Numbered from the stretch's first letter, positions 2,407 to 32,966 are shown. The stretch is 37,932 bases of DNA from Minisyncoccota bacterium (GCA_018062285.1 JAGOSO010000007.1:1-37932), one strand, 5' to 3'. The notes: a model not told the origin generated them from the sequence alone. A program made the numbers and translations.

Positions 2407-2410
2407 AAAA

Positions 2411-2441
2411 GGGCGGGGACCGAAGTCCCGCGCCCGCGATA
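2411..2441 (-). terminator. GC-rich hairpin (gggcggggac-cgaa-gtcccgcgccc) with T-run on the minus strand; terminator of the minus-strand GC-rich ORF, also placed to stop hpf
   Basis: Inverted repeat with a one-base bulge. The A-run on the + strand before it is a T-run downstream on the - strand. Confidence 0.55.
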
Positions 2442-2654
2442 CTATTCGTCGAGGCTGTTGTTTCTTTCTGCTGCTCGCTCGACCAGACGGTCTATTTCAC
2501 TTTTGCCGTCGTGGTAACCATCTTGCCAAGCTCGTGGATATTTTCTGATCTGCCACCAGGCGAGAGGGTTATCTTCAAAGCCACGTCTGTAGCCCTCTTC
2601 GTACTGCACCTTTTCTTCCTTAGACCATTCCTTGCTCCTGTCCCGTGCGACCAT
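2442..2654 (-). CDS. G+C-rich small charged Trp-rich protein (70 aa) of unknown function; cargo of foreign cassette 1
   Basis: ATG at 2654-2652 with AGGAGG RBS 6 nt upstream on the - strand. GC content is visibly above the flanks. Bracketed by a consensus promoter (2738-2766) and a terminator (2411-2441). Confidence 0.55.
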   Translation of the reverse strand: MVARDRSKEWSKEEKVQYEEGYRRGFEDNPLAWWQIRKYPRAWQDGYHDGKSEIDRLVERAAERNNSLDE

Positions 2655-2737
2655 GGCCGTCCTCCTGTTTTCACAGAAGGAGGCTAGGCCTATTCCTAGT
2701 TGCTGAACCCTTCTGTGAAGTGTAGTATTGTCTTTGA

Positions 2738-2766
2738 ATTATAACAAAATTTACTTGTTTTGTCAA
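2738..2766 (-). promoter_or_regulatory. Consensus sigma70 promoter on the minus strand: TTGACA-N17-TATAAT (ttgacaaaacaagtaaattttgttataat)
   Basis: Reverse complement of 2738-2766. The leader to the ATG at 2654 is about 85 nt. Confidence 0.55.
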
Positions 2767-2804
2767 ATGTAATTTGGGACTAATTGTGCTAAAATAAACG
2801 AACA

Positions 2805-5492
2805 ATGGCATTTTTATCTAATCTCTTTGGGGATGCAAATAAGCGGTATATTAAGTCCCTAGAGCCAATTATCAGTAAGATCAACGAACTCGAGAAAGAT
2901 CTCGTGGGTCTTTCAGATGCTCAATTAAAAGAAAAGACCACTGAATTTAAAAAAAGATTAGCCGAGGGTGAGGCTTTGGATGATTTATTGCCTGAAGCTT
3001 TTGCTACAGTTCGTGAAGCATCTAAGCGCACTCTTGGTCAGCGTCATTACGATTCTCAGTTGATTGGTGGCATTGCTTTGCATCGTGGCACGATTGCCGA
3101 AATGAAAACCGGTGAAGGTAAAACTTTGGTTGCCACTGCACCTGTTTATTTGAATGCCCTTACCGGTAAGGGTGTGCACATGGTTACCGTCAATGATTAC
3201 CTTTCTCGGCGTGACGCCGCTTGGATGGGCCAAATTTATGACGCCCTTGGCTTAACTGTGGCTTGTATTAACCACGAAGCCAGTTACCAATACGATTCAT
3301 CTCACGTAACAAAAGAAGAAGATAAGGAAGAAGACGTCGAAGGTGGATTCAAGATTGTTCATGAGTTACTTCGACCAATTACTCGCAAACAAGCTTATGC
3401 TTGTGATATTACCTATGGCACCAACAATGAATATGGTTTCGATTATCTTCGCGACAACATGGCTTATTCTCAGGATCAGATGTCTCAGCGCTCAGCTGAA
3501 GAAGGTGGCCATAATTTTGCCATTGTCGACGAAGTCGATTCTATTTTAATCGACGAAGCTCGAACCCCGCTTATTATTTCTGCACCAGATGAAGATTCTG
3601 GTGAATTGTATGCCACCTTTTCCAAAATTGCCCCCAAGCTAAAAGAGGAAGAAGACTATATTGTCGATATTAAAGAGAAGGCCGTTTCAATCACCGAAGC
3701 TGGTATCGAAAAAGTTGAACAACTATTGGGTGTTAAAAATATCTATGATGAAGGTGGAACAAAATATGTTCACCACCTTGAACAAGCCCTGAAAGCTCAG
3801 GTTATTTTCCATCGCGACCAGAACTATGTGGTTAAAGATGGAGAAATTATTATTGTAGATGAATTTACTGGCCGCTTAATGCCTGGCCGTCGTTGGTCAG
3901 AAGGTACTCACCAGGCCGTTGAAGCTAAAGAAGGTGTTAAGGTTCAAAAAGAATCCCGCACCTTGGCGACAATTACTTTCCAAAATTATTTCCGTTTGTA
4001 TGAAAAATTGGGTGGAATGACAGGCACAGCCCAAAGCTCAGCTGAAGAGTTCCATAAAGTTTATGAATTGGATTCTATTAGCATTCCAACCAACAAGCCA
4101 AATATCCGTAAGGATATGCCAGATAAGATTTTCAAAAATGAAATTGGAAAATTCCGAGCTATCGTTCAGGAAATCAAAGAACGCACTAAGACCGGTCAGC
4201 CTGTTTTGGTCGGCACAGTTTCAATTGATAAGAACGAGTATCTTTCTTTAATGCTGGAACGTGAGGGTGTTGCCCATACTTTGTTAAATGCTAAGAACCA
4301 CGAAAAAGAAGCTGAGCTTCACGCCCAAGCCGGTCGTTTGGGTTCAGTGACAATAGCCACCAACATTGCTGGTCGTGGCGTCGACATTATTCTTGGCGGT
4401 AACCCACCAGATAAAGAAATGCAGGAAAAGGTTCGTGCTCTCGGTGGATTACATGTTATTGGCACAGAACGTCATGAAGCTCGACGTATTGATGATCAGT
4501 TGCGTGGCCGTGCAGGTCGTCAGGGTGACCCAGGTTCATCACAATTCTTTGTTTCGACTGAGGACGAGTTAGTTCGTCGTTTCGGTGGTGACAGCCTTAA
4601 AAACATTATGGAACGTTTGGGTGTAGGAGAGGATGACGTTATCGAAAATAGATTTGTTTCTAATGCTATTCAACAAGCCCAGACTCGTATTGAGGGTTAC
4701 AATTTTGACGCTCGTAAATATATTCTTGAATACGATGACGTAATGAACAAGCAGCGCGAAACCATTTATGGTTTACGTCGTGAGATCTTGTTCTCAGAAA
4801 GTGCTAAGCCAATCATCGAGGGTTATCTCGAAGATTATATAAAACGCGCTGTTCAATTTCATACCACTGGTCATGAGTGGGATGTAAAAGAATTGGCTAT
4901 TTCATTTGAAGCAGTTGTTGGTAGTGATTCAGAAATTTCAAAAAATATTCAAACTCTTGCTGATTCCAGAGATGTTGAAGGCTTAAGGAGTTACATGCAA
5001 GAATATGTCACTAGTCGTTATTCTAACCGCGAGACGGAATTAGGTCTAGAACAAATGCGAATGCTTGAAAAGTTGGTATTGTTGCGTACTATTGATGAAA
5101 TTTGGGTTGAGCATATTTCGGCTATGGAATATTTGCGTGGCTCGGTACGCTTACGTGCTTATGGCCAGCGTGACCCCCTTGCCGAATACAAGGTTGAAGG
5201 TCAGCGCATGTTCACTGAACTCCTTGATTCTATTAAGGGCCAAGTCGTTGATGCTATTTTTAAAGTCAGTATGATGCAGCAACCTGAAAAGGTTAAGGTG
5301 ATTGAAGGCCGCGCTAATATAGAAGGGGAAACTATCGTTGAAAAAGAATCTCAACGTGCTGACGCGGTTTATAACTCCGAAGAAGATAAAGCTGGTCGTA
5401 ATGATCCTTGCCCCTGTGGTTCTGGTAAGAAATTCAAAAAGTGTGGTCTCTTAAATACTGAAGAGCATCAACGGTTGTCTTCAAGCAAGTAA
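2805..5492 (+). CDS. secA: Preprotein translocase ATPase SecA
   Basis: 895 aa. DEAD-like motor motifs (GEGKT, DEVDSILIDEA) and the C-terminal zinc finger CPCGSGKKFKKCG. Confidence 0.95.
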   Translation: MAFLSNLFGDANKRYIKSLEPIISKINELEKDLVGLSDAQLKEKTTEFKKRLAEGEALDDLLPEAFATVREASKRTLGQRHYDSQLIGGIALHRGTIAEMKTGEGKTLVATAPVYLNALTGKGVHMVTVNDYLSRRDAAWMGQIYDALGLTVACINHEASYQYDSSHVTKEEDKEEDVEGGFKIVHELLRPITRKQAYACDITYGTNNEYGFDYLRDNMAYSQDQMSQRSAEEGGHNFAIVDEVDSILIDEARTPLIISAPDEDSGELYATFSKIAPKLKEEEDYIVDIKEKAVSITEAGIEKVEQLLGVKNIYDEGGTKYVHHLEQALKAQVIFHRDQNYVVKDGEIIIVDEFTGRLMPGRRWSEGTHQAVEAKEGVKVQKESRTLATITFQNYFRLYEKLGGMTGTAQSSAEEFHKVYELDSISIPTNKPNIRKDMPDKIFKNEIGKFRAIVQEIKERTKTGQPVLVGTVSIDKNEYLSLMLEREGVAHTLLNAKNHEKEAELHAQAGRLGSVTIATNIAGRGVDIILGGNPPDKEMQEKVRALGGLHVIGTERHEARRIDDQLRGRAGRQGDPGSSQFFVSTEDELVRRFGGDSLKNIMERLGVGEDDVIENRFVSNAIQQAQTRIEGYNFDARKYILEYDDVMNKQRETIYGLRREILFSESAKPIIEGYLEDYIKRAVQFHTTGHEWDVKELAISFEAVVGSDSEISKNIQTLADSRDVEGLRSYMQEYVTSRYSNRETELGLEQMRMLEKLVLLRTIDEIWVEHISAMEYLRGSVRLRAYGQRDPLAEYKVEGQRMFTELLDSIKGQVVDAIFKVSMMQQPEKVKVIEGRANIEGETIVEKESQRADAVYNSEEDKAGRNDPCPCGSGKKFKKCGLLNTEEHQRLSSSK

Positions 5493-5494
5493 TA

Positions 5495-6223
5495 ATGGCT
5501 CCAAAATTTTCTTCGATAAAGATATCTCGTTCGGGTTTAAAGCTTTTTCAAGAATGCCCAAGATGCTTTTGGTTGGATGTTCACCACAAGATTAAACGTC
5601 CGCCAAGTTTGCCATACACCCTTTCATCGGCGGTGGATTTTTTAGTTAAACAAGAATTTGATAAATATCGTCAACAAGGAATCTTGCCCCCAGTCTTGGC
5701 CCGCCACCTTGCTGGTGATGCTAAATTATATAACGGTCCCGAGTTGCCAATCTGGCGGGAGAATTTTAAAGGTGTTCAATATTTTGATGAAGATTTAAAC
5801 GCTATGCTTTATGGTGCAGTAGATGATGTTTTGCAATTGGCCGATGGTTCTTTGGCAGTGATTGACTACAAATCTTCTGGTTCGCGAGAAATAAAAATCT
5901 ATGAAGATTATCAAAAGCAGATGGATATTTATACATATCTTCTAGATAGAAATGGTTTTAAAACTCATACTGAAGCCTATTTTGTTTTCTATCAAGTTGA
6001 CAAGACTGGTGGGGGATTCCAAAATTCTTTGCCGTTTATAGAATCACTCAAGGCTGTCAAAGCCGACAAGAGTTGGGTCCAGAATGTTTTTGAGCAAGCC
6101 GTTGCTGTGGCTCGCCAAGATACCCCGCCAGAAGTCATTATGCCTTGCCCTCACTGTGTTTATGTTCAACAGGCTGGTAAGCATGCAATGACTGATAGTG
6201 AGCAGATCATAGAGTTGGGATAG
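5495..6223 (+). CDS. Cas4-like PD-(D/E)XK nuclease with Cys cluster (stand-alone, RecB-nuclease-domain family)
   Basis: N-terminal CPRC, the 'VIDYKSS' D-x-K nuclease motif and C-terminal CPHC. Starts 2 nt after the secA stop, so probably one operon. Confidence 0.6.
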   Translation: MAPKFSSIKISRSGLKLFQECPRCFWLDVHHKIKRPPSLPYTLSSAVDFLVKQEFDKYRQQGILPPVLARHLAGDAKLYNGPELPIWRENFKGVQYFDEDLNAMLYGAVDDVLQLADGSLAVIDYKSSGSREIKIYEDYQKQMDIYTYLLDRNGFKTHTEAYFVFYQVDKTGGGFQNSLPFIESLKAVKADKSWVQNVFEQAVAVARQDTPPEVIMPCPHCVYVQQAGKHAMTDSEQIIELG

Positions 6224-6244
6224 ATTTTATTTTTTGATAAAATA

Positions 6245-6273
6245 TTGACAAAAACACCTTAATTTATTATAGT
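6245..6273 (+). promoter_or_regulatory. Consensus sigma70 promoter TTGACA-N17-TATAGT driving cassette 2
   Basis: ttgacaaaaacaccttaatttattatagt. A roughly 100-nt GC-rich leader follows. Confidence 0.55.
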
Positions 6274-6384
6274 ATTACAACTCAGCAATTCTGCTGGGTT
6301 CTCGGACATAAGGCGCATTAGTCGCACTGCTTCCGGGGAGTTCTCTTAACAACCCTAAGATCACCCAACCCAGGAGTGTTCCAG

Positions 6385-7476
6385 ATGGTTAGAAGTTCGT
6401 TTGTTGTGATGGAGTCGGCGGCCTTGGATGAAACCAAGGACAAAGAACTCATTTTGAGAGGCGTTATTAAGCAGGATTGCCTCACTCATCTGATGGTCGA
6501 CGACTATCAGCGTGAGGCGATGCCCCTTACCGCTCTCTCGAGCATCATTCAGGCTCTCGAAAATGGTGACGCATTACCCGATATCGAACTCGGCATGCGA
6601 GGCGGCCGTTTCAAGGACAAGGACGGCAACTTCGTCCTTCAGGACATCCTCTACATCATCGATGGGCTGCAGCGTGTGAACGCTGCCATCCAGATTCTCA
6701 AAACCAAGCCTGACGTCAAAATTCGGCTTGGCGCTACCGTGCACTTCAACACCACCAAGGAATGGGAACGGGAACGTTTCCGTGTCCTGAACACTCTTCG
6801 GAGCAAGGTTTCTCCCAACGTCCTCCTTCGCAACAAGCGGGAAGAAAGCAGCGCAGTGAAGATGCTTTTCGCCCTCAGCAAGGGCGACAGGCAGTTCGCG
6901 CTCTATGAGCGAATTGCCTGGGGTCAGCGTATGATTAAGGGAGACCTTATCGGTGCGCTGACTTTTGCCAAAGTCACTGGCGTGCTGCACTCTCACAAGG
7001 CACCCACCCGAAGGACTTCCGTCAACCAGTTGGTTCCTGCACTCGACAAGGCGCTGGAGGTTGTGGGTATTCAGGCGATGAGGAAGAACGTGAGAGGGTT
7101 TTTCGACCTTATCGACGAATGTTGGGGGATCAAACGTGTTCAGTATCGTGAAGGGGCCGTGTATATGCGCGGTACGTTCCTTCATGTGATGGCCCGCCTG
7201 ATCTCTGATCACACCGATTTCTGGCGAGGTGATGGTCAGGAGGAGCTCTTCGTTGAAGCTTCTCTTCGCAGAAAGATCGCATCGTTCCCTATCCACGACC
7301 CTGCCGTCACGAGTCTCGCCAGTTCTGGTGGCAAGTCGCGTGACATGTTGTACATGCTCATGCGTGACCACATCAACAGTGGGAAGCGCACGAAGCGCCT
7401 CACTTCTCGGACCGGAGACATGGTCTCCTTGGGAACCGACGACGACGATGATGCTGTCGTCGACAACGAGGAATAG
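6385..7476 (+). CDS. G+C-rich DUF262 / ParB-like nuclease-domain protein (DGQQR-type motif 'IIDGLQRVN', 'DDYQRE'); cargo of cassette 2
   Basis: The track ORF starts at GTG 6376. ATG 6385 sits 8 nt downstream of AGGAG. The N-terminal motifs match the DUF262 (GmrSD N-domain / DndB-like ParB fold) signature. The acidic tail is DDDDDAVVDNEE. Confidence 0.5.
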   Translation: MVRSSFVVMESAALDETKDKELILRGVIKQDCLTHLMVDDYQREAMPLTALSSIIQALENGDALPDIELGMRGGRFKDKDGNFVLQDILYIIDGLQRVNAAIQILKTKPDVKIRLGATVHFNTTKEWERERFRVLNTLRSKVSPNVLLRNKREESSAVKMLFALSKGDRQFALYERIAWGQRMIKGDLIGALTFAKVTGVLHSHKAPTRRTSVNQLVPALDKALEVVGIQAMRKNVRGFFDLIDECWGIKRVQYREGAVYMRGTFLHVMARLISDHTDFWRGDGQEELFVEASLRRKIASFPIHDPAVTSLASSGGKSRDMLYMLMRDHINSGKRTKRLTSRTGDMVSLGTDDDDDAVVDNEE

Positions 7477-7497
7477 TTGCTGATCTCGTCGCTTTGT

Positions 7498-7527
7498 AAG
7501 GGGCCCCAAAAGGGCCCCTTTTTTATT
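7498..7527 (+). terminator. Intrinsic terminator ggggcccc-aaaa-gggcccc + TTTTTTATTT
   Basis: Perfect GC hairpin and T-run immediately after the stop at 7476. Confidence 0.75.
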
Positions 7528-7553
7528 TCTCACAAAATAGATATACTAGGCAG

Positions 7554-9029
7554 ATGCCAAGTACCGATAACGCTTCAGCCCATCCATCAGCAGACAAATC
7601 TAAACTCTACGGAGATTATTTTTACAAATTCTTCCAGTGCCCGCATTGGATTTGGTACGATATCTATGGCGATGGCCAACACAAAAGAGAAGTCCCACCA
7701 TTGCTAGATTTGATTTATAAAGGCAAAGCGATTGATAAGGGCGAAGGTTTATCGAACCATAAAAAATTCGAGCAAATCAACCCGGATCTCTTCAAAGATT
7801 TAGACGAAGCATTTTTAGCAACAATTGAATTGATGAAGCAGGGTAAAAATATTTACCACGGTGTTTTGATGTCTGAAGATTGGGTTGGAATGCCAGACCT
7901 ACTCGAAGCTCGACCAGGCAAATCTCAGCTCGGCGATTTTTATTACGTTGTTTATGATGCGCAAAATTCTCTTGAGATGCGCGATGAGTATAAGTTTCAA
8001 TTAATTTTCTACAGCTTAATATTAGAAAGAATTCAGGGTATTCGGCCAGTTGAAGCATATGTGATTGATTCTCAGGGCAATGAAAGAGGATTTGTAATTG
8101 CAGAGTTTATTGACCAGTTTCATCTGACCCGCAAGGAAATTGAGAAGATCCTTAACGGAGAAAAACCAGCCCCATTTTTGAAGGCTGGTTGCAAGCGTAC
8201 TCCTTGGTATTCTTTGTGTGTAGCTGAAACACAAGGATGTAACGATGTCTCGCTTATTTACAGAATTAGCCAAGCCGACCAGCGTCGCTTGTATGATATA
8301 GGCATAAAAACCGTCGATGCACTGGCGGCAATTGACCCAGACGAACTTCAGGAGAAATTAGAAGATTGGACATACGATAAAATCATTCGCTTTTCTAATC
8401 AGGCTCGCGCTTTAACCACTGGTCAACCGACGATAACTCGTAAGCCAAACTTCCCGGACGTTCGGTATGAGGTTTATTTTGATATTGAATCTGACCCCTT
8501 GGCTGACATCGACTATTTATTGGGCTACCTAGTTAAAGATACGCAAACAGGCAAAATCGAGTATTGTTATTGTTTGGCTAAAGACAAAGAGCATGAGCCA
8601 GAGGCATGGCGTAAGTTTTTGGAATATCTGGCCGAGCTCGAAGACTTTGTTATCTACCACTATGCTTTTTACGAAAGGCAAGTCTTCGAACGTTTGGCGC
8701 AAAGATACGGCGCCCCAGACGGTTTGGTCGATAAGTTTAAGGAAAATACGATAGACCTGCATACTAAGTTGGTGGACTCAGCTATTTTGCCAATTTATTT
8801 CTATTCTCTAAAAGATGTGGGTTCTTATTTGAATTATAAATGGGATGATCCTAGGGCGGGCGGAGCAGAATCTATTCTATGGTATAAGGATTGGGTGGCC
8901 ACAGGGGATGAAACTATTATTAAAAAAATTCTTCGCTACAATGAAGACGATGTTCGTGCGACCATGGCCATTAAGGATTGGTTGGTTGGCCAGAAACCCA
9001 GTAAGACTAAGGAATCTTTGGACGAGTAG
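7554..9029 (+). CDS. RecB-family nuclease with N-terminal Cas4-like Cys domain and C-terminal YprB/RNase-H-fold (DEDD-like 'FDIESD') domain (TM0106-type)
   Basis: 'FFQCPHWIWYD' at the N-terminus and 'VYFDIESDPLADIDY' in the C-terminal half. Low GC, host-like. Confidence 0.45.
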   Translation: MPSTDNASAHPSADKSKLYGDYFYKFFQCPHWIWYDIYGDGQHKREVPPLLDLIYKGKAIDKGEGLSNHKKFEQINPDLFKDLDEAFLATIELMKQGKNIYHGVLMSEDWVGMPDLLEARPGKSQLGDFYYVVYDAQNSLEMRDEYKFQLIFYSLILERIQGIRPVEAYVIDSQGNERGFVIAEFIDQFHLTRKEIEKILNGEKPAPFLKAGCKRTPWYSLCVAETQGCNDVSLIYRISQADQRRLYDIGIKTVDALAAIDPDELQEKLEDWTYDKIIRFSNQARALTTGQPTITRKPNFPDVRYEVYFDIESDPLADIDYLLGYLVKDTQTGKIEYCYCLAKDKEHEPEAWRKFLEYLAELEDFVIYHYAFYERQVFERLAQRYGAPDGLVDKFKENTIDLHTKLVDSAILPIYFYSLKDVGSYLNYKWDDPRAGGAESILWYKDWVATGDETIIKKILRYNEDDVRATMAIKDWLVGQKPSKTKESLDE

Positions 9030-9075
9030 TTGACTTCTATAATCCACTATGTTTCAATCTAAGGAACATAACCCC

Positions 9076-10464
9076 ATGAGAAAAAATTTATTTTTAATTG
9101 CAACCATCCTCGGGTCACTTCTCTTGCTAGCTTTTGTCGCCCCTCAAGAATTAAATCTTGTCGCCAAGAAACTCCACATTCCAAAAGTAAATATTTCTGC
9201 CCGCCCATTCCATTTGGGTCTTGATCTCTTGGGCGGTACACACTTAGTCTACCAGGCCGATGTTTCAAAGGTTACAACTTCGGCAAAGGATGCCATGCAA
9301 GGTGTTCGAGATGTCGTAGAGCGCCGCGTTAATTTGTTCGGCGTCTCTGAGCCTGTTGTTCAGATTTCTGGGGGCAATCGCTTGATTGTGGATTTGGCTG
9401 GTATCAGTGATGTTAACCAGGCAATTCAATTAATCGGGAAAACTCCTTTCTTAGAGTTCAAAACCCTTCTTCCGAATGCTCAGGGCGATGCAATTATAAA
9501 ACAAGCTCTCGGTGATAAGGCTCAGGGTTTAACTGCCGCGAATCTTTGTGCCCCAGCGAACATTGAAGCATTGGATCAATTCTTGATAACGTTCAGAGCA
9601 GACCCTTGCTATCAACCATCTGGCTTGAATGGTTCTGGTTTAAAAACGGCCCAAGTTTCTTTTAATAATCAATCCTTGACCCCGCAGGTTAGTTTGCAAC
9701 TTAACGATGAGGGCAAAAAACTATTTGGCCAAATTACCCAAACCAATCTCGGTAAGACAGTGGCAATCTATTTGGATGGTTTACCAATTTCAACTCCAAC
9801 TGTTCAGAGCGCTATCACTGATGGCAACGCTGTAATCAGTGGTAACTTCACTCCAGCAGATGCTAAAACTTTAGTTGAGCGTTTGAACTCTGGTGCCTTG
9901 CCTGTTCCAATTCAATTGGTTAGTCAGCAAACAATCGGAGCCAGTCTTGGTCAAGATTCCTTGACTCGTAGCTTGAGAGCCGGTGTCTTTGGTCTTATTT
10001 TCGTGGCAATCTTCATGATCTTGTTTTATCGTTTGCCAGGTGTCATATCCGTCATTGCTCTCCTGGTTTATATCTTGATAGTTCTATCCATATACAAAGT
10101 TATTCCAGTCACTTTGACTTTGGCTGGTATTGCTGGTTTTATTCTTTCTTTGGGTATGGCTGTGGATGCCAACATTCTTATCTTTGCTCGCATGAAAGAA
10201 GAATTGGCCGCTGGTAAATCTCTGCACACCGCAATGCACGAAGGTTTTTCTAGGGCTTGGTTGTCTGTTCGAGACAGTCATGTGACCACCTTGATTGGTG
10301 CCGTAGTCTTGTATGCTACTACTAGCTCGATTGTTAAGGGTTTCGCTTTGACTCTTGGCGTGGGCGTTTTGACAAGTTTGCTTACGGCTACAGTTGTTAC
10401 TCGCACATTCTTGAATTTGGTGGCTACTCCGTGGTTTGAGAAAAAACAATGGTTATTTAGATAA
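9076..10464 (+). CDS. secD: Protein-export membrane protein SecD
   Basis: 'GLDLLGGTHLVYQAD' and the C-terminal polytopic TM bundle. The track ORF starts at 9049. ATG 9076 has a better RBS (AAGGAA). Confidence 0.85.
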   Translation: MRKNLFLIATILGSLLLLAFVAPQELNLVAKKLHIPKVNISARPFHLGLDLLGGTHLVYQADVSKVTTSAKDAMQGVRDVVERRVNLFGVSEPVVQISGGNRLIVDLAGISDVNQAIQLIGKTPFLEFKTLLPNAQGDAIIKQALGDKAQGLTAANLCAPANIEALDQFLITFRADPCYQPSGLNGSGLKTAQVSFNNQSLTPQVSLQLNDEGKKLFGQITQTNLGKTVAIYLDGLPISTPTVQSAITDGNAVISGNFTPADAKTLVERLNSGALPVPIQLVSQQTIGASLGQDSLTRSLRAGVFGLIFVAIFMILFYRLPGVISVIALLVYILIVLSIYKVIPVTLTLAGIAGFILSLGMAVDANILIFARMKEELAAGKSLHTAMHEGFSRAWLSVRDSHVTTLIGAVVLYATTSSIVKGFALTLGVGVLTSLLTATVVTRTFLNLVATPWFEKKQWLFR

Positions 10465-10471
10465 TATCACT

Positions 10472-11350
10472 ATGCTTCCAAAGATATACAAATTAATGTT
10501 CTGGTTCTCGATTTCACTCTTTGTGTTATCGGTTGTTTCTGTTGGTATGTTTGGTTTAAAGTTGGGCGTCGATTTTAAGGGTGGTAGTGTGTTGGAATTA
10601 AATTTCAACAATCGCCCAGATGTTGCCAAGATCCAGAGTGTTCTAGTTTCTAAGATTGGGGATGTTGAGTTAAATACTGAAGGAACTTCTGGCCTTATTG
10701 TCCGCAGTCATGAATTAACCGAGATTCAGCACCAAGAAGTTCTTGCATCTTTAAATTCGTCTTTTCCTACTGCTGGCCTCCAAGAGAAGCAGTTTAGTTC
10801 TGTCGGGCCGATTATTGGCAACGAATTAAAACAGAGAAGCTTATTCGCTATTGCGCTGGTTTTGATTTGCGTAATTGTCTACATTGCTTTTGTCTTTAGG
10901 AAACTTGGACGCACGACATCGCCATGGTCCATGGGTCTTGCTGCTGTTATTGCCCTTATTCATGATGTCGCAATCCCCGTCGGTGTTTTTGCTGCGCTGG
11001 GCCATTTTTACGGAATTGAAATTACTGGCGTGTTCGTTGCTGCTGCTTTGACGATCTTGGGATTTTCCGTATCTGATACAGTTGTCATTTTTGATCGTGT
11101 GCGTGAGAACGTAATCCGCGGGGGAGGTAAAACTAATTTTGGTGAGCTTGTTCATCGTAGTGTCATGCAAACTCTCACCCGTTCGTTGAATACAGTTTTT
11201 ACTGTACTCCTTTCATTGTTTGCTATTTATTTTTTCGGCGGAGCTAGTATAAAATATTTCTCACTCGCATTGATTATTGGTATTTTCTTGGGGGCATATT
11301 CATCTATTTTCGTGGCCTCGCCTCTGCTGGTTTGGTGGACCAAGAAGTAG
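10472..11350 (+). CDS. secF: Protein-export membrane protein SecF
   Basis: The track ORF starts at TTG 10436, overlapping secD. The first ATG after the secD stop is 10472. Shows the 'GVDFKGG' motif and the SecF TM pattern. Confidence 0.85.
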   Translation: MLPKIYKLMFWFSISLFVLSVVSVGMFGLKLGVDFKGGSVLELNFNNRPDVAKIQSVLVSKIGDVELNTEGTSGLIVRSHELTEIQHQEVLASLNSSFPTAGLQEKQFSSVGPIIGNELKQRSLFAIALVLICVIVYIAFVFRKLGRTTSPWSMGLAAVIALIHDVAIPVGVFAALGHFYGIEITGVFVAAALTILGFSVSDTVVIFDRVRENVIRGGGKTNFGELVHRSVMQTLTRSLNTVFTVLLSLFAIYFFGGASIKYFSLALIIGIFLGAYSSIFVASPLLVWWTKK

Positions 11351-11368
11351 GGGCTGTGGATAGGGGTG

Positions 11369-11397
11369 TTGACGTATTTTTATAAATAGTATATAAT
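11369..11397 (+). promoter_or_regulatory. Host consensus promoter TTGACG-N17-TATAAT
   Basis: ttgacgtatttttataaatagtatataat, upstream of 11446. Confidence 0.5.
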
Positions 11398-11445
11398 TCA
11401 CTAATCGTATCCTAAGGCGCTAAAAGCCTGGGGTTCTAACCACTT

Positions 11446-12510
11446 ATGGCAACCAACACATCAGTAAATATCAAGAAAACAGTCGCTGATTTGCTTAAAA
11501 ACACCTCAGCTCGCAACAAGGACATTATATCCCGACGTTTTGGTTTGAAGACTGGCCAAAAAGAGACTCTTGAGTCTATTGGCGCTTCATATAGTATTAC
11601 CCGAGAACGTGTCCGTCAGATTGAGGAATCAACTCTTTCTCAGCTCCGTCAGGCCGCTGCCGATAATACTGACGTTAAGCGTTATATTGTTTTAGCTCGC
11701 GATATTTTAAATGAACGTGGTGGTGTCATAAAAGAAACCGAACTTTTCAAATCCTTCAGTGGTTCCGAAAGTGATAACACCAATAACAGCTCCTTGGTCT
11801 TCCTTTTAACCTTAAGCAATGAATTGGCTCGTTATCCGGAAAATGATGATTTCAATTCTTTCTGGTCTGTTAATACCGCAACTCTCGCATCTTTCAGTAA
11901 TTCCGCTAATTCTTTAGTTAAAGTTTTGGAAAAAGCTGGCCGAGTTGTTTCAAATTCTGACTTTGCTTTCTTGGCCCAGAAACATAACGTTCCAAGTTTT
12001 TCAACAAGTGGCAAACCACTCTCAGAAGCTGATATAAATTTGGTTATGTCTATTTCCAAGAATCTTGGCTCAAATATTTTCAATGAAGTTGGTTTAGCCT
12101 CTTGGTCCGAAATCAAACCTAAAGGTGTTCGTGATAAAGCTTTCTTGGTCCTCAAAAAATCAACCAAGCCTCAGCATTTCAGTGATATCGCTTCATTGAT
12201 TAATGCTTCTGGTTTCAATAATAAAAAAGCCAACGTCCAGACTGTCCATAACGAACTTATTAAGGATGATCGTTTTATCCTTGTAGGTCGTGGTATGTAC
12301 GCTTTGTCTGAATGGGGATATCGGGCTGGCACTGTTAAAGATGTTCTTGTGGATATCCTAAAGTCGTCCGGCAAACCTCTTACCAAGACTGCCCTTATGG
12401 CTAAGGTCAAAGATGCTCGTATGGTCAAAGAGAATACAATCTTATTAAACCTTCAAGACTCCAAGACTTTCAGCAAGAACGTGGACGGTACATACAATCT
12501 CAAGAAATAA
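11446..12510 (+). CDS. Sigma-70 region-4-like HTH domain protein (N-terminal 'TLESIGASYSITRERVRQIEESTL') with a C-terminal extension
   Basis: Region-4 HTH signature near the N-terminus. The rest is unassigned. Confidence 0.5.
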   Translation: MATNTSVNIKKTVADLLKNTSARNKDIISRRFGLKTGQKETLESIGASYSITRERVRQIEESTLSQLRQAAADNTDVKRYIVLARDILNERGGVIKETELFKSFSGSESDNTNNSSLVFLLTLSNELARYPENDDFNSFWSVNTATLASFSNSANSLVKVLEKAGRVVSNSDFAFLAQKHNVPSFSTSGKPLSEADINLVMSISKNLGSNIFNEVGLASWSEIKPKGVRDKAFLVLKKSTKPQHFSDIASLINASGFNNKKANVQTVHNELIKDDRFILVGRGMYALSEWGYRAGTVKDVLVDILKSSGKPLTKTALMAKVKDARMVKENTILLNLQDSKTFSKNVDGTYNLKK

Positions 12511-12576
12511 CTCCTGCGACAAAAGAGGCTGACAAGGCCTCTTTTGAGTAATGGGAAGAAGTAGTATAATAATAGA

Positions 12577-13857: not shown

Positions 13858-13866
13858 AATATATAC

Positions 13867-15516: not shown

Positions 15517-15720
15517 TTTCTCTCGCTGTTCTCTCCGCCTGTCTCGCAACCTCGAATTCGTCACTGATGCCGAACAAAAAGGCTACCTTGCCGAACTGCT
15601 GTTCGGTTTCCTTTTTGTTACCGGCATAGTTTTCTCATTCTTCGGGCGATAAGACGGCGTCGAGAAGTGCTCAGAAACTAATTAGACCTTCGCTTTTATT
15701 GTTTGTGTTATTAGACAATT
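15517..15720. repeat. Left copy of an approximately 200-bp imperfect inverted repeat (partner 26700-26900); contains a bidirectional terminator hairpin ccgaac-tgct-gttcgg with flanking A/T runs
   Basis: The reverse complement of 26700-26900 aligns. The core 'ccggtaacaaaaaggaaaccgaacagcagttcggcaaggt' matches about 58/59. 'gagacaggc.gagagaacagcgagagaaa' matches 32/33. Flanks differ mostly by transitions. Confidence 0.75.
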
Positions 15721-15730: not shown

Positions 15731-15958
15731 GTGTTTAAATGTTTGAACATTGGAGGGTTTGTGTCCGAAGAAAAATGTGACGGTATTTGTGACTTGTTGA
15801 GGAAGTTGGGAGAGCAGAGGGGTTGGGATGTGGATACAGCCCATGAGAAAGCTCTGTATACGAAACATGTGCTTGCCCTGCCTTCACTGCGTGACGGTGT
15901 CGAGTATCTGCTGGAGGGCAAGCCTGTCCCGCCGCCGCCCAGCCCCGAAGAGGTCTGA
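15731..15958 (+). CDS. G+C-rich small ORF (75 aa from GTG), unknown; ends 7 nt before terminator 15965-16007
   Basis: No in-frame ATG and a weak RBS. Supported mainly by the downstream terminator and by composition. Overlapping ORFs in other frames exist. Confidence 0.3.
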   Translation: MFKCLNIGGFVSEEKCDGICDLLRKLGEQRGWDVDTAHEKALYTKHVLALPSLRDGVEYLLEGKPVPPPPSPEEV

Positions 15959-15964
15959 ACTTCC

Positions 15965-16007
15965 TGCCCGTGAGCGCACTATCGGTGCCCTCACGGGCAC
16001 TTTTTAT
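15965..16007 (+). terminator. Intrinsic terminator tgcccgtgag-...-ctcacgggca + TTTTT
   Basis: 10-bp stem and T-run. Confidence 0.65.
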
Positions 16008-16029: not shown

Positions 16030-16057
16030 CCCCATTTTGTCATCCTTGACAAAATGG
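16030..16057. promoter_or_regulatory. Perfect 12-bp inverted repeat cccattttgtca-tcct-tgacaaaatggg overlapping the -35 of the flotillin promoter; candidate operator
   Basis: Exact palindrome read from the sequence. It overlaps TTGACA at 16046-16051. -10 spacing is ambiguous (TAATAT/TACTCT). Confidence 0.45.
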
Positions 16058-18545: not shown

Positions 18546-18563
18546 ATAAAAGAGGTGACACAC

Positions 18564-25295: not shown

Positions 25296-25325
25296 ATTGA
25301 CTTTTGGGTATAAAATATGGTATAA
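25296..25325 (+). promoter_or_regulatory. Promoter TTGACT-N18-TGgTATAAT (extended -10)
   Basis: ttgacttttgggtataaaatatggtataat. Paralogous to the promoter at 26036. Confidence 0.55.
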
Positions 25326-25401
25326 TTAAGGTACTCTCGTGAGTATAACTTGCGAGTGTTCGTTCACAACATTCAAAGCCTATAAGGCGGAGGATAGACA
25401 T

Positions 25402-25953
25402 ATGAAATGGAATAAGTTCAAGGCGCTTCTTGATTCGAATTACTGGCTTCAGTTTCATATCGGCCCACCCGCGCTTCAGTCGTTGAGGCTCAACGTGCCG
25501 GCGAAGGAGGCTGAGCGTGGACTCAAGGATTACGTTCGGACACGGCTCGATTACATCGCGTTCCGTCCGTTCGAGCAGCTTGACCTTCAGGTTTGTGACA
25601 CGGACGAGAGTGTTGTCGTGCCAAATCCGAAGTACCGCAACATCAAGTTCACGGAAGGAACATCGACTCAGTACGTGATTCGTTTCCATATCGAGGGCGT
25701 GGAATATCCGTTCCATCGTGTTCGATACGTTTATGATCACGGCTCAATCGCTGCTGCCATCAAACATCTCGTGAAGTGGCACGGCGAAACTTCGTGGGGA
25801 GGTCCGAGAGGGCGCGCGTTGAAAATCGACGCCGTCGTTAAGGTTAGCTCTTACTACCACGAAGTTAGCCAGGTCGGGATGCAGCACATCGAGGCCTACG
25901 AGTTCCCCAAAGATTTCGATCTCAAGAAGTTCGAGGGAGAAGTCGCGGCCTAG
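25402..25953 (+). CDS. G+C-rich protein of unknown function (183 aa)
   Basis: The track starts at GTG 25339. ATG 25402 follows GGCGGAGGA. Ends at the terminator module. Confidence 0.5.
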   Translation: MKWNKFKALLDSNYWLQFHIGPPALQSLRLNVPAKEAERGLKDYVRTRLDYIAFRPFEQLDLQVCDTDESVVVPNPKYRNIKFTEGTSTQYVIRFHIEGVEYPFHRVRYVYDHGSIAAAIKHLVKWHGETSWGGPRGRALKIDAVVKVSSYYHEVSQVGMQHIEAYEFPKDFDLKKFEGEVAA

Positions 25954-25956
25954 CAC

Positions 25957-26012
25957 GCCCGTCACACGAAAGGTCCGCCATGCGCGACCCGTGTGGCGGG
26001 CCTTTTAAATTT
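25957..26012 (+). terminator. Terminator module gcccgtcacacg...cgtgtggcgggc + CTTTTAAATTT (copy 1 of a ~70-bp direct repeat)
   Basis: 25951-26020 is about 93% identical to 26624-26693. Confidence 0.65.
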
Positions 26013-26035
26013 AAAAATGTTCAAAAATATCCTAT

Positions 26036-26063
26036 TGACTTTTAAGTAAAAACATAGTATAAT
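26036..26063 (+). promoter_or_regulatory. Promoter TTGACT-N16-TATAAT (paralogue of 25296-25325; shared 'cctattgactttt')
   Basis: Read from the sequence. Confidence 0.5.
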
Positions 26064-26131
26064 TATAAAACAGAGATTAGATAGGTTTTTAAAAATTCAA
26101 CCGCGCCTAAGGGGCGCAGAAAGTAGGAAGT

Positions 26132-26626
26132 ATGGGATTCCCGGTTTGGAAGACTGTCGTTCTCGGTCTGGTTAAGTCCCAGAAGAACTATCGAATGGCC
26201 CTCCGAAAAGCTGGTTACGAAATTAGCGGTTGGGGCGAGAAGGTTCTCAAGAGGACCACGGTCTCTCCGGTGGAACTCGAATTGGATCTCGTCGCCGTGA
26301 CGGTCGAAGAGCTTGGTCTTGAGATTGGCGCGCATCGGGATGTCGCTTGCGCCAAAGCATTGGAGCTTGGTCTCCAGCTTTGCCCAGCGGAAGTTGGTCC
26401 CGCTCTGAGGCTCCTCTACAGGGATCAGCCGCGTGGCGAACTGCTCCGCATAGGTATGCGAGCGGTCGCTTATTCGGCCGGGCGTAAGCTAACGTTCGGT
26501 CTTAACCACAGTGACTTCCGTGGACAAGAACTAAACGGATTTGGTGGCCAAGCACTCGACGGCTATATTGTTGCCGCTCGAGTAGTCTCTCGTATCTGTT
26601 GGGTCTTTGTTCGTCCTCGTAAGTAG
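26132..26626 (+). CDS. G+C-rich protein of unknown function (164 aa)
   Basis: ATG 26132. Leader hairpin gcgcc-taag-gggcgc. Terminator module copy 2 follows. Confidence 0.45.
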   Translation: MGFPVWKTVVLGLVKSQKNYRMALRKAGYEISGWGEKVLKRTTVSPVELELDLVAVTVEELGLEIGAHRDVACAKALELGLQLCPAEVGPALRLLYRDQPRGELLRIGMRAVAYSAGRKLTFGLNHSDFRGQELNGFGGQALDGYIVAARVVSRICWVFVRPRK

Positions 26627-26629
26627 CAC

Positions 26630-26690
26630 GCCCGTCACACGAAAGGCCGCCACGCGCGACCCGTGTGGCGGGCCTTTTAAATTTAAAAAA
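26630..26690 (+). terminator. Terminator module copy 2
   Basis: See 25957-26012. Confidence 0.65.
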
Positions 26691-26699
26691 TAATTCTTC

Positions 26700-26900
26700 A
26701 TTTAATAAAAACAAAAATAGCGAAGCGCTCACTATTTTCGAGCGTTTCTCGACGCCGTATTCTCGTCCGAAAATTTATGGAATTCTTCCGGTAACAAAAA
26801 GGAAACCGAACAGCAGTTCGGCAAGGTGGCCTTTTTGTTCGGAAGTAATGAATAAATTGAAGTTACGAGACAGGCAGAGAGAACAGCGAGAGAAATAGTG
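26700..26900. repeat. Right copy of the ~200-bp inverted repeat (partner 15517-15720)
   Basis: See the left copy. Confidence 0.75.
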
Positions 26901-26930
26901 AGGGCGCAGCGAACCTGCTATAATAAGGAT

Positions 26931-28352: not shown

Positions 28353-28383
28353 TTGACTTTTTAGTGGGGCAGGTGTTTAATAT
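28353..28383 (+). promoter_or_regulatory. Promoter-like TTGACT-N17/19-(TTTAAT/TAATAT) for cassette 5
   Basis: Read from the sequence. The -10 is ambiguous. Confidence 0.35.
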
Positions 28384-28400
28384 GCGAAAGGAGTTTGCCA

Positions 28401-28697
28401 ATGAAGACAGTTAAGGATCTTACATGGGGAATTGGTTTCCTCACAGGGATAAAGCTTAATGCCCTCCCTGAGTCTGACCGTTCGGAGATTATCGCCGATG
28501 CTCAAAAGCTTGGCGAGCAACTCCTGGAAGACGCAAAGGGTTTGCTCAAAACCAGTTCTTTGCCGGTTGCTCTGTGTGGTCTTCCTGCGGAGATGGTGCT
28601 GAGTTCTGAGGCAGAAAGGCTTTTTGACGCCCTCGTGGCGAAGAAGGAAGAGGTCTTTGCCCGGTGCGCCAATGAACAGCAGACCGGTAATGGCTGA
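28401..28697 (+). CDS. Moderately G+C-rich small protein (98 aa), unknown
   Basis: The track starts at TTG 28395. ATG 28401 is 7 nt after AAAGGAG. Followed by a 12-bp-stem terminator. Confidence 0.45.
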   Translation: MKTVKDLTWGIGFLTGIKLNALPESDRSEIIADAQKLGEQLLEDAKGLLKTSSLPVALCGLPAEMVLSSEAERLFDALVAKKEEVFARCANEQQTGNG

Positions 28698-28707
28698 AGA
28701 TCGTTTT

Positions 28708-28753
28708 GCCCGTCGGCACTTAAAAACAAGGTGCCTACGGGCACTTTGTTTTT
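28708..28753 (+). terminator. Terminator gcccgtcggcac-loop-gtgcctacgggc + TTTGTTTTT
   Basis: Same 'gcccgt..gcac/gtgc..acgggc' stem style as 15965-16007. Confidence 0.6.
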
Positions 28754-28758
28754 AATGG

Positions 28759-31375: not shown

Positions 31376-31759
31376 ATGGGAGAACAAAATAATAATTCGG
31401 AGTTCTGGAAGAAGTTGGAGAAAGAGATTGCTGAAGAACAGGAAGCTCGCAAGGAGTATTTGCCAAAACTCGAGCAAGACGTCCAAAAACTAAAGAGTAG
31501 GTATGAAGTATTTTTAGAAGAAAGTCCTGGTGATGCTCTTCGCGCAAAGAGGGATCTGGTGGAAGGAATCGTGGCACTCGAAGAACTCAAAGAAAGAATT
31601 AGGAGATGTGCTGATGACCCTTCAAAAAGACATAATCTTAGCGAACTAGAATTAAAGGAGCTTGAGAGGAGGGTTATGCAAGATCTTGGCTATCCAGAGG
31701 ACGAACTCAAGTTGTTCGATGAATATATCGAATATCTAAAACAAAAAAATCAGCCCTAG
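31376..31759 (+). CDS. Coiled-coil charged protein (127 aa), unknown
   Basis: E/K/R-rich heptad-like sequence. Confidence 0.45.
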   Translation: MGEQNNNSEFWKKLEKEIAEEQEARKEYLPKLEQDVQKLKSRYEVFLEESPGDALRAKRDLVEGIVALEELKERIRRCADDPSKRHNLSELELKELERRVMQDLGYPEDELKLFDEYIEYLKQKNQP

Positions 31760-31811: not shown

Positions 31812-31875
31812 TTTTGGCCCGCCAAGTAGCGCAATCATGCGTGAACAGCGGGCCTCGTTTTATTATTGACAAAAT
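31812..31875 (+). repeat. Array repeat R1 (64 bp): hairpin ggcccgc-...-gcgggcc + T-run + TTGACAAAAT -35
   Basis: Near-identical copies at 32085-32148 and 32359-32422 (period 273/274 bp). Half-copy at 32917-32943. Confidence 0.8.
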
Positions 31876-31915
31876 ATTTATTTGGTGGTAGTATATTAGA
31901 ACAAGGAGGAGCGAG

Positions 31916-32071
31916 ATGAGAGTGTCGAGGGTTCTAGTTCTGATTGGTGTTGGCGCCGCAGCGGGCGCCATGTTCCACTATTGGGTGTACCCCTCATTCG
32001 TGGATGAGGTAGGGGTGGCAGTGGTGGCCATGCTTGTGGTTCACCTTTATCCTCGTTTGAAGCGTCGGTAG
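31916..32071 (+). CDS. Small hydrophobic peptide A (51 aa) MRVSRVLVLIGVGAAAGAMFHYWVYPSFVDEVGVAVVAMLVVHLYPRLKRR
   Basis: TGgTAGTAT extended -10 and AAGGAGGA RBS 6 nt before the ATG. Under 60 aa, so absent from the track. Paralogous to peptide B. Confidence 0.55.
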   Translation: MRVSRVLVLIGVGAAAGAMFHYWVYPSFVDEVGVAVVAMLVVHLYPRLKRR

Positions 32072-32084
32072 TTGTGTTCCTGTC

Positions 32085-32148
32085 TTTTGGCCCGCTAAGT
32101 AGCGCAATCATGCGTGAACAGCGGGCCTCGTTTTATTATTGACAAAAT
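32085..32148 (+). repeat. Array repeat R2
   Basis: See R1. Confidence 0.8.
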
Positions 32149-32182
32149 ATGGTTTTAATGTTAATGTATAAAAATTGGAGGC

Positions 32183-32350
32183 ATGATGCAGATTCCAGAA
32201 GGGGCGAAGTTACCATGGCTAGTTTTTGTTGGAGTTGCTGTGGGGGTTATTTTTCATAACCTCGTGAACTCTTCAAGGGTTCTTGAGGTTGCGGTGATGG
32301 TTGCGGTGATGGTCCTGTGTCGACGTTACGGTCCGTTGAAACGTGGATGA
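32183..32350 (+). CDS. Small hydrophobic peptide B (55 aa) MMQIPEGAKLPWLVFVGVAVGVIFHNLVNSSRVLEVAVMVAVMVLCRRYGPLKRG
   Basis: TTGGAGG RBS. Shares the G-V-G/A...FH...EV-V-AVM...LKR pattern with peptide A. Confidence 0.55.
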   Translation: MMQIPEGAKLPWLVFVGVAVGVIFHNLVNSSRVLEVAVMVAVMVLCRRYGPLKRG

Positions 32351-32358
32351 CGGTCCCA

Positions 32359-32422
32359 TTTTGGCCCGCTAAGTAGCGCAATCATGCGTGAACAGCGGGC
32401 CTCGTTTTGTTATTGCAAAAAC
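32359..32422 (+). repeat. Array repeat R3 (-35 variant TTGCAA, -10 TATAAT)
   Basis: See R1. Confidence 0.8.
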
Positions 32423-32461
32423 AATTTTCTGTACTATAATGTTGGTGCAAAGGGGTGGATT

Positions 32462-32674
32462 ATGTGGAAGGGAATTAATGCCTGGTTGAATCGTCATGCC
32501 AGGACGGCGAATGCTGTTGCGTTCTTTTTCTCCCTGGCATCTCTCGCCCGGGACGCACAGGCTCACACATTAATGACGATTGATAACAAGCCTTGGACAG
32601 CCATGTCGATCGTTATTGTGATCAGCTGCATTTTGTTCGAGGTCGACAGGGCCTATTTTTCCAAAAGGAGCTAG
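32462..32674 (+). CDS. Small membrane peptide C (70 aa) with hydrophobic core and basic tail
   Basis: ATG 32462 follows AAAGGGG. The track ORF 32384-32674 includes the upstream promoter region. Confidence 0.5.
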   Translation: MWKGINAWLNRHARTANAVAFFFSLASLARDAQAHTLMTIDNKPWTAMSIVIVISCILFEVDRAYFSKRS

Positions 32675-32676
32675 CT

Positions 32677-32886
32677 GTGCCGGTGTACCTTTTGCAGTAT
32701 GCCGTGGAGTTGTCGGGCGATGAGGCCGCTCACGCGTTCGATGAAGCAATTCTTGCAGAGGCCAGGAAGAACAGTGTTATGGTCGAAGAAGTTAGGGTTA
32801 GTCGAGGCGACCATGTCCTTCGTTTTTCTGTGCCCCTTCATTCAGGCTTGAACCTCGCAGATCTTCCCAGAAGTAAAAGAGACTAG
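32677..32886 (+). CDS. Small soluble acidic protein (69 aa, GTG start), translationally coupled to peptide C
   Basis: AAGGAG-N6-GTG at 32665-32679, 3 nt after the peptide C stop. The track lists a longer out-of-context start at 32593. Confidence 0.45.
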   Translation: MPVYLLQYAVELSGDEAAHAFDEAILAEARKNSVMVEEVRVSRGDHVLRFSVPLHSGLNLADLPRSKRD

Positions 32887-32910
32887 GATTTATCAGACAA
32901 CAAAACTTAA

Positions 32911-32943
32911 GGGGCTCGCCACAGCGGGCCTCGTTTTTTTATC
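32911..32943 (+). terminator. Terminal half-repeat/terminator (…cacagcgggcctcGTTTTTTTAT)
   Basis: Matches the 3' half of R1-R3 without a promoter. Confidence 0.55.
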
Positions 32944-32966
32944 TAGAAAGTGGTATTTTGATATAT

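Follow-up and report, generated by a model that had tools for sequence, protein, structure and literature searches.

How the tiny genomes of the candidate phyla radiation (CPR, Patescibacteria) gain functions is an open question. It is raised in concrete form by a stretch of 37,932 bp from a Minisyncoccota bacterium (JAGOSO010000007.1; hereafter the window), which is the entire contig of a Patescibacteria metagenome-assembled genome and which shows the addition of single genes between essential operons at six loci. Where do these genes come from, and how did they get there? An earlier note on this DNA regarded the six loci as one family of modular expression cassettes with unrelated foreign cargo, acquired repeatedly or engineered. 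We consider it probable that the loci contain accessory genes gained by horizontal transfer, which have collected between the conserved core genes of a Yanofskybacteria-like chromosome, at intergenic hotspots. The units look like gene-transfer islets with the anatomy of phage morons, placed in a cellular chromosome, and the pattern needs neither a new class of mobile element nor engineering. In Patescibacteria horizontal transfer is frequent, mostly within the phylum, and comprises many islands as well as individually transferred genes (PMC12455944).

Compositionally foreign genes at variable intergenic sites

The long open reading frames (ORFs) of the window are CPR housekeeping genes (Table 1). 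A scan with the aspartyl-tRNA synthetase (AspRS), using one genome per GTDB species, placed the host among Candidatus Yanofskybacteria; the closest matches have 84-85% amino-acid identity, and the gene order is largely kept in those genomes. The GC content of the window is 43%. For the 24 host ORFs it is 0.36-0.44, with a GC content at third codon positions (GC3) of 0.30-0.44, while the 12 ORFs across the six loci, two of which correspond to the locus tags KBC81_03570 and KBC81_03605, have a GC of 0.47-0.58 and a GC3 of 0.46-0.75. Codon usage is not uniform either: with a leave-one-out model of host codons as the reference, the z scores of the cassette ORFs are -1.9 to -4.8 (Mann-Whitney p = 2e-6). 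GC3 and codon usage set all 12 apart from the host genes; these ORFs are compositionally foreign. The G+C-rich character of the loci, as described in the earlier note, is thus real, but the host with its roughly 40% GC is moderate rather than very low in GC. A thirteenth ORF listed in the loci (26665-26898) has host-like composition and is probably not a gene. The high G+C content would reflect donors or gene pools richer in G+C than the host, namely related Patescibacteria with up to 53% GC and the viruses or mobile elements of these bacteria; the SPFH gene of locus 3 would ultimately derive from high-GC free-living bacteria.

That the units are intergenic insertions is borne out by synteny at sites 2-6, where at least one relative has a gap of only 12-150 bp and the ORFs of the window are not at the orthologous positions. 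At site 2 (PDDEXK-RNaseH2), four relatives, with a PDDEXK protein that is 90% identical, have a gap of 27 bp. Site 3 (VirD4-HD) measures about 60 bp in the related genome L005 and contains unrelated units in L004, L006 and L176. Site 4 (MraY-FtsW) comprises at most 150 bp in L004, L007, L010 and L013, and is occupied in L005 by an ABC transporter gene lacking a Shine-Dalgarno (SD) sequence. The gap is 57 bp in L006 at site 5 (S20-UvrB) and 12 bp in L005 at site 6 (RuvA-FemAB). For site 1 (HPF-SecA) the sole comparator, L176, is differently filled (a 236-bp gap with a different palindromic element), and there is no empty one.

Other small units with promoter, SD sequence and terminator are present at the same sites in L004 (1-1050, 9060-9450 and 12400-12740), L006 (6800-7220, 17470-17720 and 18630-18880) and L176 (18900-19640). 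Conservation across genomes was seen for the terminator ends of loci 5 and 6, around unrelated units, and for the T tract and the host promoter downstream of locus 3. Since no homology was detected between cargoes at the same site, and terminator ends and host promoters are conserved, we regard the sites as hotspots with cargo turnover. Occupancy of these hotspots varies between genomes, and it is the same few intergenic sites that turn over in the related ones. We also considered that cargoes sharing a site could be fast-diverged orthologues, which was not supported (Smith-Waterman z below 3.1 between genomes). Another variable site was seen between SecA and the PD-(D/E)XK gene (5492-5495), where the window has a 2-bp gap, and the L006 genome and L174 have a gene for a 665-aa M3 peptidase.

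Could the genes be native and vertically inherited, with a composition shaped by expression level or protein function? Their regulatory regions are AT-rich as in the host, and some of the terminators are conserved with relatives. However, relatives do not have these genes at the orthologous sites, both GC3 and codon usage are well beyond what is seen in the host genes, and the GC excess of the locus 2 gene (c2) recurs in many unrelated low-GC hosts. In addition, the SPFH matches already suggest a phylogeny incongruent with the species tree. Native origin is therefore very unlikely.

The sharp GC steps would also be expected from a chimera of assembly or binning, or from engineered DNA, and Logan unitigs break at 15595, 26798 and 31853. 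These breaks, however, coincide with internal repeats, and the junctions of units 1, 2, 5, 6 (left side) and 3 (right side) are crossed by Logan assemblies (SRR11088367 and ERR12084920) with 99.99-100% identity to the window. A 21.7-kb contig (L183) corresponds to positions 1-12654 and contains units 1 and 2 with all their junctions, a 5.1-kb contig (26798-31853) includes unit 5 as well as the left edge of locus 6, and a 1.4-kb contig from the separate run ERR12084920 also crosses into locus 6. Locus 3 together with the host HD promoter is contained in a 3.7-kb contig (15595-19262). Since independent assemblies span most junctions, the window does not appear to be a chimera. Engineering, which the earlier note had left open, is not supported: identical sequence was obtained in two unrelated sequencing runs, and other natural genomes have analogous units, with different cargo, at these sites. 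We regard an artificial origin of either kind as extremely improbable. L183 differs from the window by a single base, and its PD-(D/E)XK gene was called with 175 aa as compared to 242 aa in the window.

Predicted expression signals of the units and of the host genes

In general, the units are self-contained in the order promoter, ribosome binding site, ORF and terminator, in line with the earlier note. This does not hold for c6_69, which lacks its own promoter and follows c6_70 in a unit of two genes, and the promoters of c3_65, c3_765 and c5 are weaker sigma-70 matches. Six sigma-70 matches of at least 11/12 exist in the window. Five are located in the loci (2766 on the minus strand, 6245, 18516, 25297 and 26035), and the remaining one (11369) is a promoter of the host. 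Overall, promoter-like sites are no more numerous than in shuffled sequence. The sequence TTGACAAAAT is found four times in the window as compared to 0.23 expected occurrences, each time in loci 3 and 6. Each unit is closed by a GC-stem hairpin with a T run behind it; in locus 6, such terminators occur three times in addition to the last one at 32911-32932. The orientation of unit 1 had to be corrected: it is encoded on the minus strand.

The clearest difference between units and host concerns the start of translation. A strong SD sequence, defined by an SD/anti-SD duplex energy of -7 kcal/mol or stronger, precedes 11 of the 11 scored cassette ORFs and 0 of 26 host genes (p = 1e-9), a contrast which exceeds the earlier statement that the cassette ribosome binding sites were stronger. 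Conversely, a Pribnow-type box (at least 5 of 6 positions matching) ends 5-10 nt before the start codon in 15/26 host genes, in none of the 11 cassette ORFs and at 3% of random positions. Since TATAAT-like boxes end 5-7 nt upstream of start codons, for example at 9036-9048, 12560-12576, 13853-13866 and 26918-26930, the host mRNAs are possibly leaderless, and the sequence suggests that this applies to many host genes. The related genomes show the same split, with a strong SD sequence in 1/37 core genes and in 9/10 accessory units (p = 5e-5; several of the accessory starts were picked by eye). Their core genes likewise lack SD sequences, and a -10 box near the start was found in only four of the 37.

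A -10 box just before the start codon in combination with a missing SD sequence resembles 'group C' of GeneMarkS-2, which is a leaderless-type pattern (PMC6028130). That group was described mainly in Actinobacteria and Deinococcus-Thermus, however, and in the present case the accessory genes of the same genome are SD-led instead. If general, the split into SD-led acquired genes and SD-less core genes would be a simple sequence marker of acquired genes in these lineages. It also suggests that the portability of expression signals shapes what can be transferred.

From these signals we infer how the units would be expressed. A sigma-70-type promoter would drive each self-contained gene or gene pair, a leader of 20-120 nt with a canonical SD site would recruit the ribosome, and the GC-stem intrinsic terminator would halt read-through into the adjoining core operon. 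Because a unit carries its own promoter, SD leader and terminator, its insertion could add a gene without disturbing the neighbours.

The leader of unit 1 contains a hairpin at about 2672-2717 (minus strand), the 3' arm of which (CCUCCUUCUGUG) is anti-SD-like. It is possible that this arm alternatively pairs with the AGGAGG just upstream of the start codon, resulting in translational control.

Cargo proteins and their sources

The protein encoded by c2 had been called a DUF262 nuclease. At best half of this assignment is supported, by a ParB/Srx-like N-terminal domain with the motifs YQR and DGxQR, which are invariant in 41 homologues; no Pfam family matches the protein at an E of 0.01 or below. 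In the AlphaFold model (predicted local distance difference test, pLDDT, 89) this domain best matches ParB-N domains (E = 1.6e-3), and matches to BrxU and SspE are weak (E = 0.16-0.34). The nuclease part of the assignment did not hold: the model shows a helical C-terminal half with no nuclease match, and neither Pfam nor PADLOC revealed a C-terminal DUF1524/HNH-type nuclease domain. A comparison of the c2 profile with PDB sequences gave no match, and look-ups by exact protein found no record of c2 in its 366-aa or 356-aa version or of the VirD4-like protein.

The c2 family has more than 750 homologues, mostly in Patescibacteria. No neighbour gene recurs across 83 loci; neighbours vary and include rpoB (L087), a large serine recombinase gene (L084) and, elsewhere, dnaB/recR or alaS. 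The GC content of the family is mostly 0.50-0.65 across hosts of 0.30-0.64, which corresponds, with one exception, to an excess of +0.07 to +0.21 in hosts below 0.50. IMG/VR contigs of 56% GC with a primase-helicase gene also contain the family, whose members there have the composition of the contig itself. Judged by its homologues, c2 is a solitary, widely scattered gene of Patescibacteria and viruses.

The closest genes of this family share a structured 5' leader, located in the window at 6278-6345 (plus strand) and in other contigs at 5883-5946 (L087), 2324-2390 (L094), 234-296 (L097), 842-908 (L099), 3871-3936 (L129), 842-905 (L142), 3873-3950 (L121) and 1851-1918 (L156). It consists of a hairpin of variable sequence, a stem P2 (CUCGG...CCGGG), the conserved sequence ACAUAAGG, a short hairpin P3 and a conserved ACUGC. 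Standard pairs are present in P2 in 44/45 cases, and each of its 5 positions shows a pair change on both sides. No Rfam family matches the leader, and an Rfam scan of the whole window revealed tRNA-Lys only. We consider this leader a candidate for a new cis-regulatory RNA.

For c3_765 the flotillin call was correct: the protein matches Band_7 (PF01145, SPFH) with E = 9.5e-28 and 97.9 bits as compared to a cut-off of 23.6, and its homologues are named YqiK or SPFH by the sources. It is 63% identical at the amino-acid level to a protein of a 69% GC genome, in which the neighbours (Kup, a two-component system and LysR) are typical of free-living bacteria. A homologue in another contig of 40% GC is also G+C-rich and has its own TTGACA promoter, SD sequence and terminator, and the family also occurs on IMG/VR viral contigs. 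The N-terminal part of c3_765 contains three tandem repeats of 219 nt (73 aa) at 16538-17194, the second and third of which have 70% and 62% DNA identity to the first; homologues of about 675 aa lack part of this region.

Among the remaining cargo, a related genome contains a homologue of c4_164 whose GC content is host-like, the family of c4_183 is rare (36 clusters among 1.84 billion representatives), and c3_181 has a transmembrane segment at its N-terminus. IMG/VR scans gave no relatives of these three proteins. PADLOC defence models gave nothing meaningful with ten cargo proteins, and PHROGs only a generic SPFH match and a weak ParB-like match. Contrary to the idea of one origin, the cargo stems from different sources.

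The presence of the c2 and SPFH families on viral contigs, the ParB-like fold of c2, which is common in mobile elements, and the large serine recombinase next to one c2 homologue would fit true morons, left by prophage decay or brought by transduction. On the other hand, phage genes (structural, integrase or replication) and a prophage context are missing from the window, and the order of the housekeeping neighbours is conserved across Paceibacterota. The loci are six separate small insertions among housekeeping genes rather than one island, the PHROG matches are weak or generic, and three of the cargo proteins lack viral relatives as mentioned above. Phage remnants or deliveries are thus quite an unlikely explanation for the loci as a whole.

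Repeated modules, palindromes and comparison with known systems

Identical regulatory sequence is limited to the interior of two loci. A 67-nt terminator module is present in two copies in locus 4 only, and a 70-nt terminator-plus-promoter module in three copies in locus 6, where its 3' half is found a fourth time as a terminator common to relatives. The modules of locus 6 are about 98% identical, as compared to 39% and 16% for the ORFs between them. Possible origins are a tandem duplication after which the ORFs diverged fast, gene conversion, or unequal recombination that stacked alternative alleles. Between loci only consensus features are common. Fuzzy searches with ten cassette promoters in 2.0 Mb of related genomes did not reveal a widespread promoter module, but only two near matches; the c4_183 promoter is identical at 26/30 positions to a promoter at a different hotspot of L006, ahead of unrelated cargo.

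Does this argue for a single family of modular mobile cassettes, in which a common promoter/terminator chassis is moved by a dedicated, undescribed mechanism? Identical modules around unrelated ORFs in loci 4 and 6, the four copies of TTGACAAAAT fused to a preceding T tract, the promoter common to two hotspots and a palindromic repeat of about 200 nt at the outer edges of loci 3 and 4 are compatible with it. However, nothing beyond consensus elements is common to the six loci, the c2 and SPFH homologues elsewhere have different promoters and terminators, and the terminators at the ends of loci 5 and 6 are common to unrelated units in relatives. No machinery was found either: a recombinase or transposase gene is missing from the window, as are terminal inverted repeats and target-site duplications, and the core of the palindrome has no exact match in JGI metagenomes. 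We consider the proposal of one mobile family unlikely. The shared style would rather have two sources, namely functional constraint (AT-rich promoters directly after a T tract, and terminator stems of the type GCCCG...CGGGC) and local duplication or recombination, by which one terminator/promoter module would have been repeated within locus 4 and within locus 6.

The palindromic repeat of about 200 nt is present in the window in only two, mutually inverted copies (A and B in Table 1) with 83-90% identity; over 161 nt, the complementarity of the two is 83%. Both fold over their whole length into a long hairpin (z = -4.5 and -6.3) and adjoin the end of a host gene, and no target duplication was seen. 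The repeat may be akin to a miniature inverted-repeat transposable element (MITE). A composite element bounded by the two copies was ruled out: since the genes between them, from the HD gene to MraY, keep the order and orientation of relatives, the pair does not bound a transposon. The relatives have palindromic intergenic repeats of their own (about 100-230 nt with terminal inverted repeats; L176 6170-6270 and 6935-7075, L006 6575-6800), which are located at or near the same hotspots.

The concept of the moron reportedly goes back to Juhala and Hendrix. Morons are characterized by a promoter and a terminator of their own, a deviant GC content and a position between genes that are adjacent in relatives, and they are expressed independently of the surrounding operon (PMC3594210). 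The units resemble them in the extra gene placed in the short gaps of relatives at sites 2-6, in the deviant composition and in the predicted promoter and factor-independent terminator, which predict independent expression here, too. However, morons are defined in phage and prophage genomes, while the units reside in a cellular chromosome next to secA, secDF, aspS, mraY, ftsW, uvrB and ruvA. A second relevant precedent, known in general from bacterial pangenomes, are the islets at core-gene hotspots, which are reported to be common in Patescibacteria, with sites that are empty or filled with unrelated cargo and transfers mostly within the phylum (PMC12455944). In comparison to these islets, the present units are very small (0.3-3.7 kb), lie between core operons, have uniformly autonomous regulation and are SD-led in a genome with an SD-less or leaderless core. 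Both precedents were overlooked in the earlier statement that such a family is not a described class.

Loci 4 and 6 are reminiscent of integron cassette arrays in that their small, unrelated ORFs stand in tandem with a hairpin-forming repeat of about 70 nt between them. This interpretation was ruled out, since there is no integrase (IntI), no attI and no attC core (RYYYAAC/GTTRRRY); furthermore, only two to three repeats are present, and integron cassettes are mostly promoterless, while the modules carry TTGACA-type promoters. Similarly, the 200-nt pair and the terminator modules recall repetitive extragenic palindromic (REP) sequences and bacterial interspersed mosaic elements (BIMEs), Correia elements and MITE-like repeats, in which palindromes downstream of genes can act as terminators. 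They differ in that there are two to three copies, no target duplications and no gene for a REP-associated tyrosine transposase (RAYT) or another transposase, and in that the modules include a promoter.

How would the accessory genes have entered? We assume either DNA uptake followed by recombination in the flanking core DNA, or phage delivery; competence-type DNA uptake was proposed as a transfer route in Patescibacteria (PMC12455944). Several points weigh against horizontal acquisition in this simple form. All window ORFs of at least 95 aa are accounted for and none is a recombinase; an integrase gene and a tRNA-linked attachment site are missing in the window as are the other hallmarks named above, leaving no visible entry mechanism. 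The search for donors gave none above about 65-69% amino-acid identity, which points to transfers that are not recent or to unsampled donors. The promoters, SD sites and terminators are predictions from sequence, and some cassette start codons were picked by eye beside an SD motif, while those of c2 and c4_183 are backed by homologue alignments. Finally, plain random transfer does not predict near-identical modules of 67-70 nt around unrelated ORFs, or the likeness between the c4_183 and L006 promoters, which hint at module-level mobility or frame-guided exchange.

Based on the last point, it is tempting to speculate that in Yanofskybacteria-like CPR genomes, with their SD-less and often leaderless core genes, accessory genes circulate as portable SD-led units, which are insulated by their own promoter and terminator and are swapped and stacked at fixed hotspots via conserved terminator/promoter 'frames', as an integrase-free counterpart of morons and integron cassettes. 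Recombination in such frames would explain the modules around unrelated ORFs in loci 4 and 6, the terminators conserved across species and the promoter module common to two hotspots. We put this forward tentatively, as a rather doubtful extension of the preferred interpretation, the accumulation of acquired genes at hotspots. The features on which the analysis is based are listed in Table 1.

Table 1. Predicted features of the six loci, the palindromic repeat copies and the host genes of the window
Feature	Position	Strand	Description
Unit 1	2407-2770	-	promoter TTGACA 2766-2761, 17-nt spacer, TGnTATAAT 2743-2738; SD AGGAGG 2666-2661; ORF c1_70 2654-2442
Unit 1 terminator	2411-2435		bidirectional, common to c1_70 and HPF gene
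Unit 2	6240-7530	+	promoter 6245-6273 (11/12); structured leader; SD 6372-6376
Unit 2 ORF c2	6385-7476	+	363 aa, ParB/Srx-like; terminator 7498-7520
Palindromic repeat copy A	15501-15703		abuts/overlaps 3' end of VirD4-like gene; central hairpin 15590-15607 resembles terminator
Unit 3a	15761-16005	+	SD GGAGGG, GTG start, ORF c3_65 15761-15958
Unit 3a terminator	15966-15998		hairpin, then T tract
Unit 3b	16046-18507	+	promoter TTGACAAAAT at 16046, TGnTACTCT at 16070-16075; SD AGGAG
Unit 3b ORF c3_765	16160-18457	+	SPFH/Band 7, YqiK-like; terminator 18478-18507
Unit 3c	18516-19169	+	promoter 18516-18545 (12/12); SD; ORF c3_181 18564-19109
Unit 3c terminator	19132-19169		followed by T tract and HD-gene promoter, both conserved in relatives
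Unit 4a	25297-26017	+	promoter 25297-25326 (11/12, with TG); SD; ORF c4_183 25402-25953
Unit 4a terminator module	25951-26017		hairpin 25957-26003
Unit 4b	26035-26689	+	promoter 26035-26063 (11/12); SD; ORF c4_164 26132-26626
Unit 4b terminator module	26624-26689		second copy; hairpin 26629-26675
Palindromic repeat copy B	26709-26912		inverted relative to copy A; adjoins FtsW start
Unit 5	28353-28754	+	promoter TTGACT, 17-nt spacer, TTTAAT (28353-28381); SD AAGGAG; ORF c5_98 28401-28697
Unit 5 terminator	28708-28742		hairpin and T tract; ends conserved in L004
Locus 6	31812-32945	+	70-nt terminator-plus-promoter module at 31812-31881, 32085-32154, 32359-32428
Locus 6 ORFs between modules			c6_51 31916-32071; c6_55 32183-32350; pair c6_70 32462-32674 and c6_69 32677-32886
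Locus 6 last terminator	32911-32932		common to relatives
Host genes			HPF (hibernation factor), SecA, PD-(D/E)XK protein, RNase H-like protein, SecD, SecF, sigma-region-4 protein, DUF8128, VirD4/TraG-like ATPase, HD protein, tRNA-Lys, AspRS, two D-Ala-D-Ala carboxypeptidase-like proteins, MraY, FtsW, S20, UvrB, RuvA, FemAB, HIT, MurE, cupredoxin-like protein, presenilin-type peptidase

Two genes counted as host, h127 (31376-31759) and a VanY-like gene (20575-21615), have the lowest codon scores among the host genes and are missing from the corresponding positions in the closest relatives; they may therefore be older acquisitions at the same hotspots. Between the promoter and the start codon of the HD gene, a long palindromic structure is located at 19215-19312 in the window and at about 1080-1210 in L004, with different sequences in the two, and it is absent in L006 and L176. 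Upstream of the HPF gene, a lysine-rich ORF of 30 aa (MAKKKIAKKAKK...) with its own terminator is located at 1912-2004 (plus strand) and is conserved in L176 at about 6457-6500.

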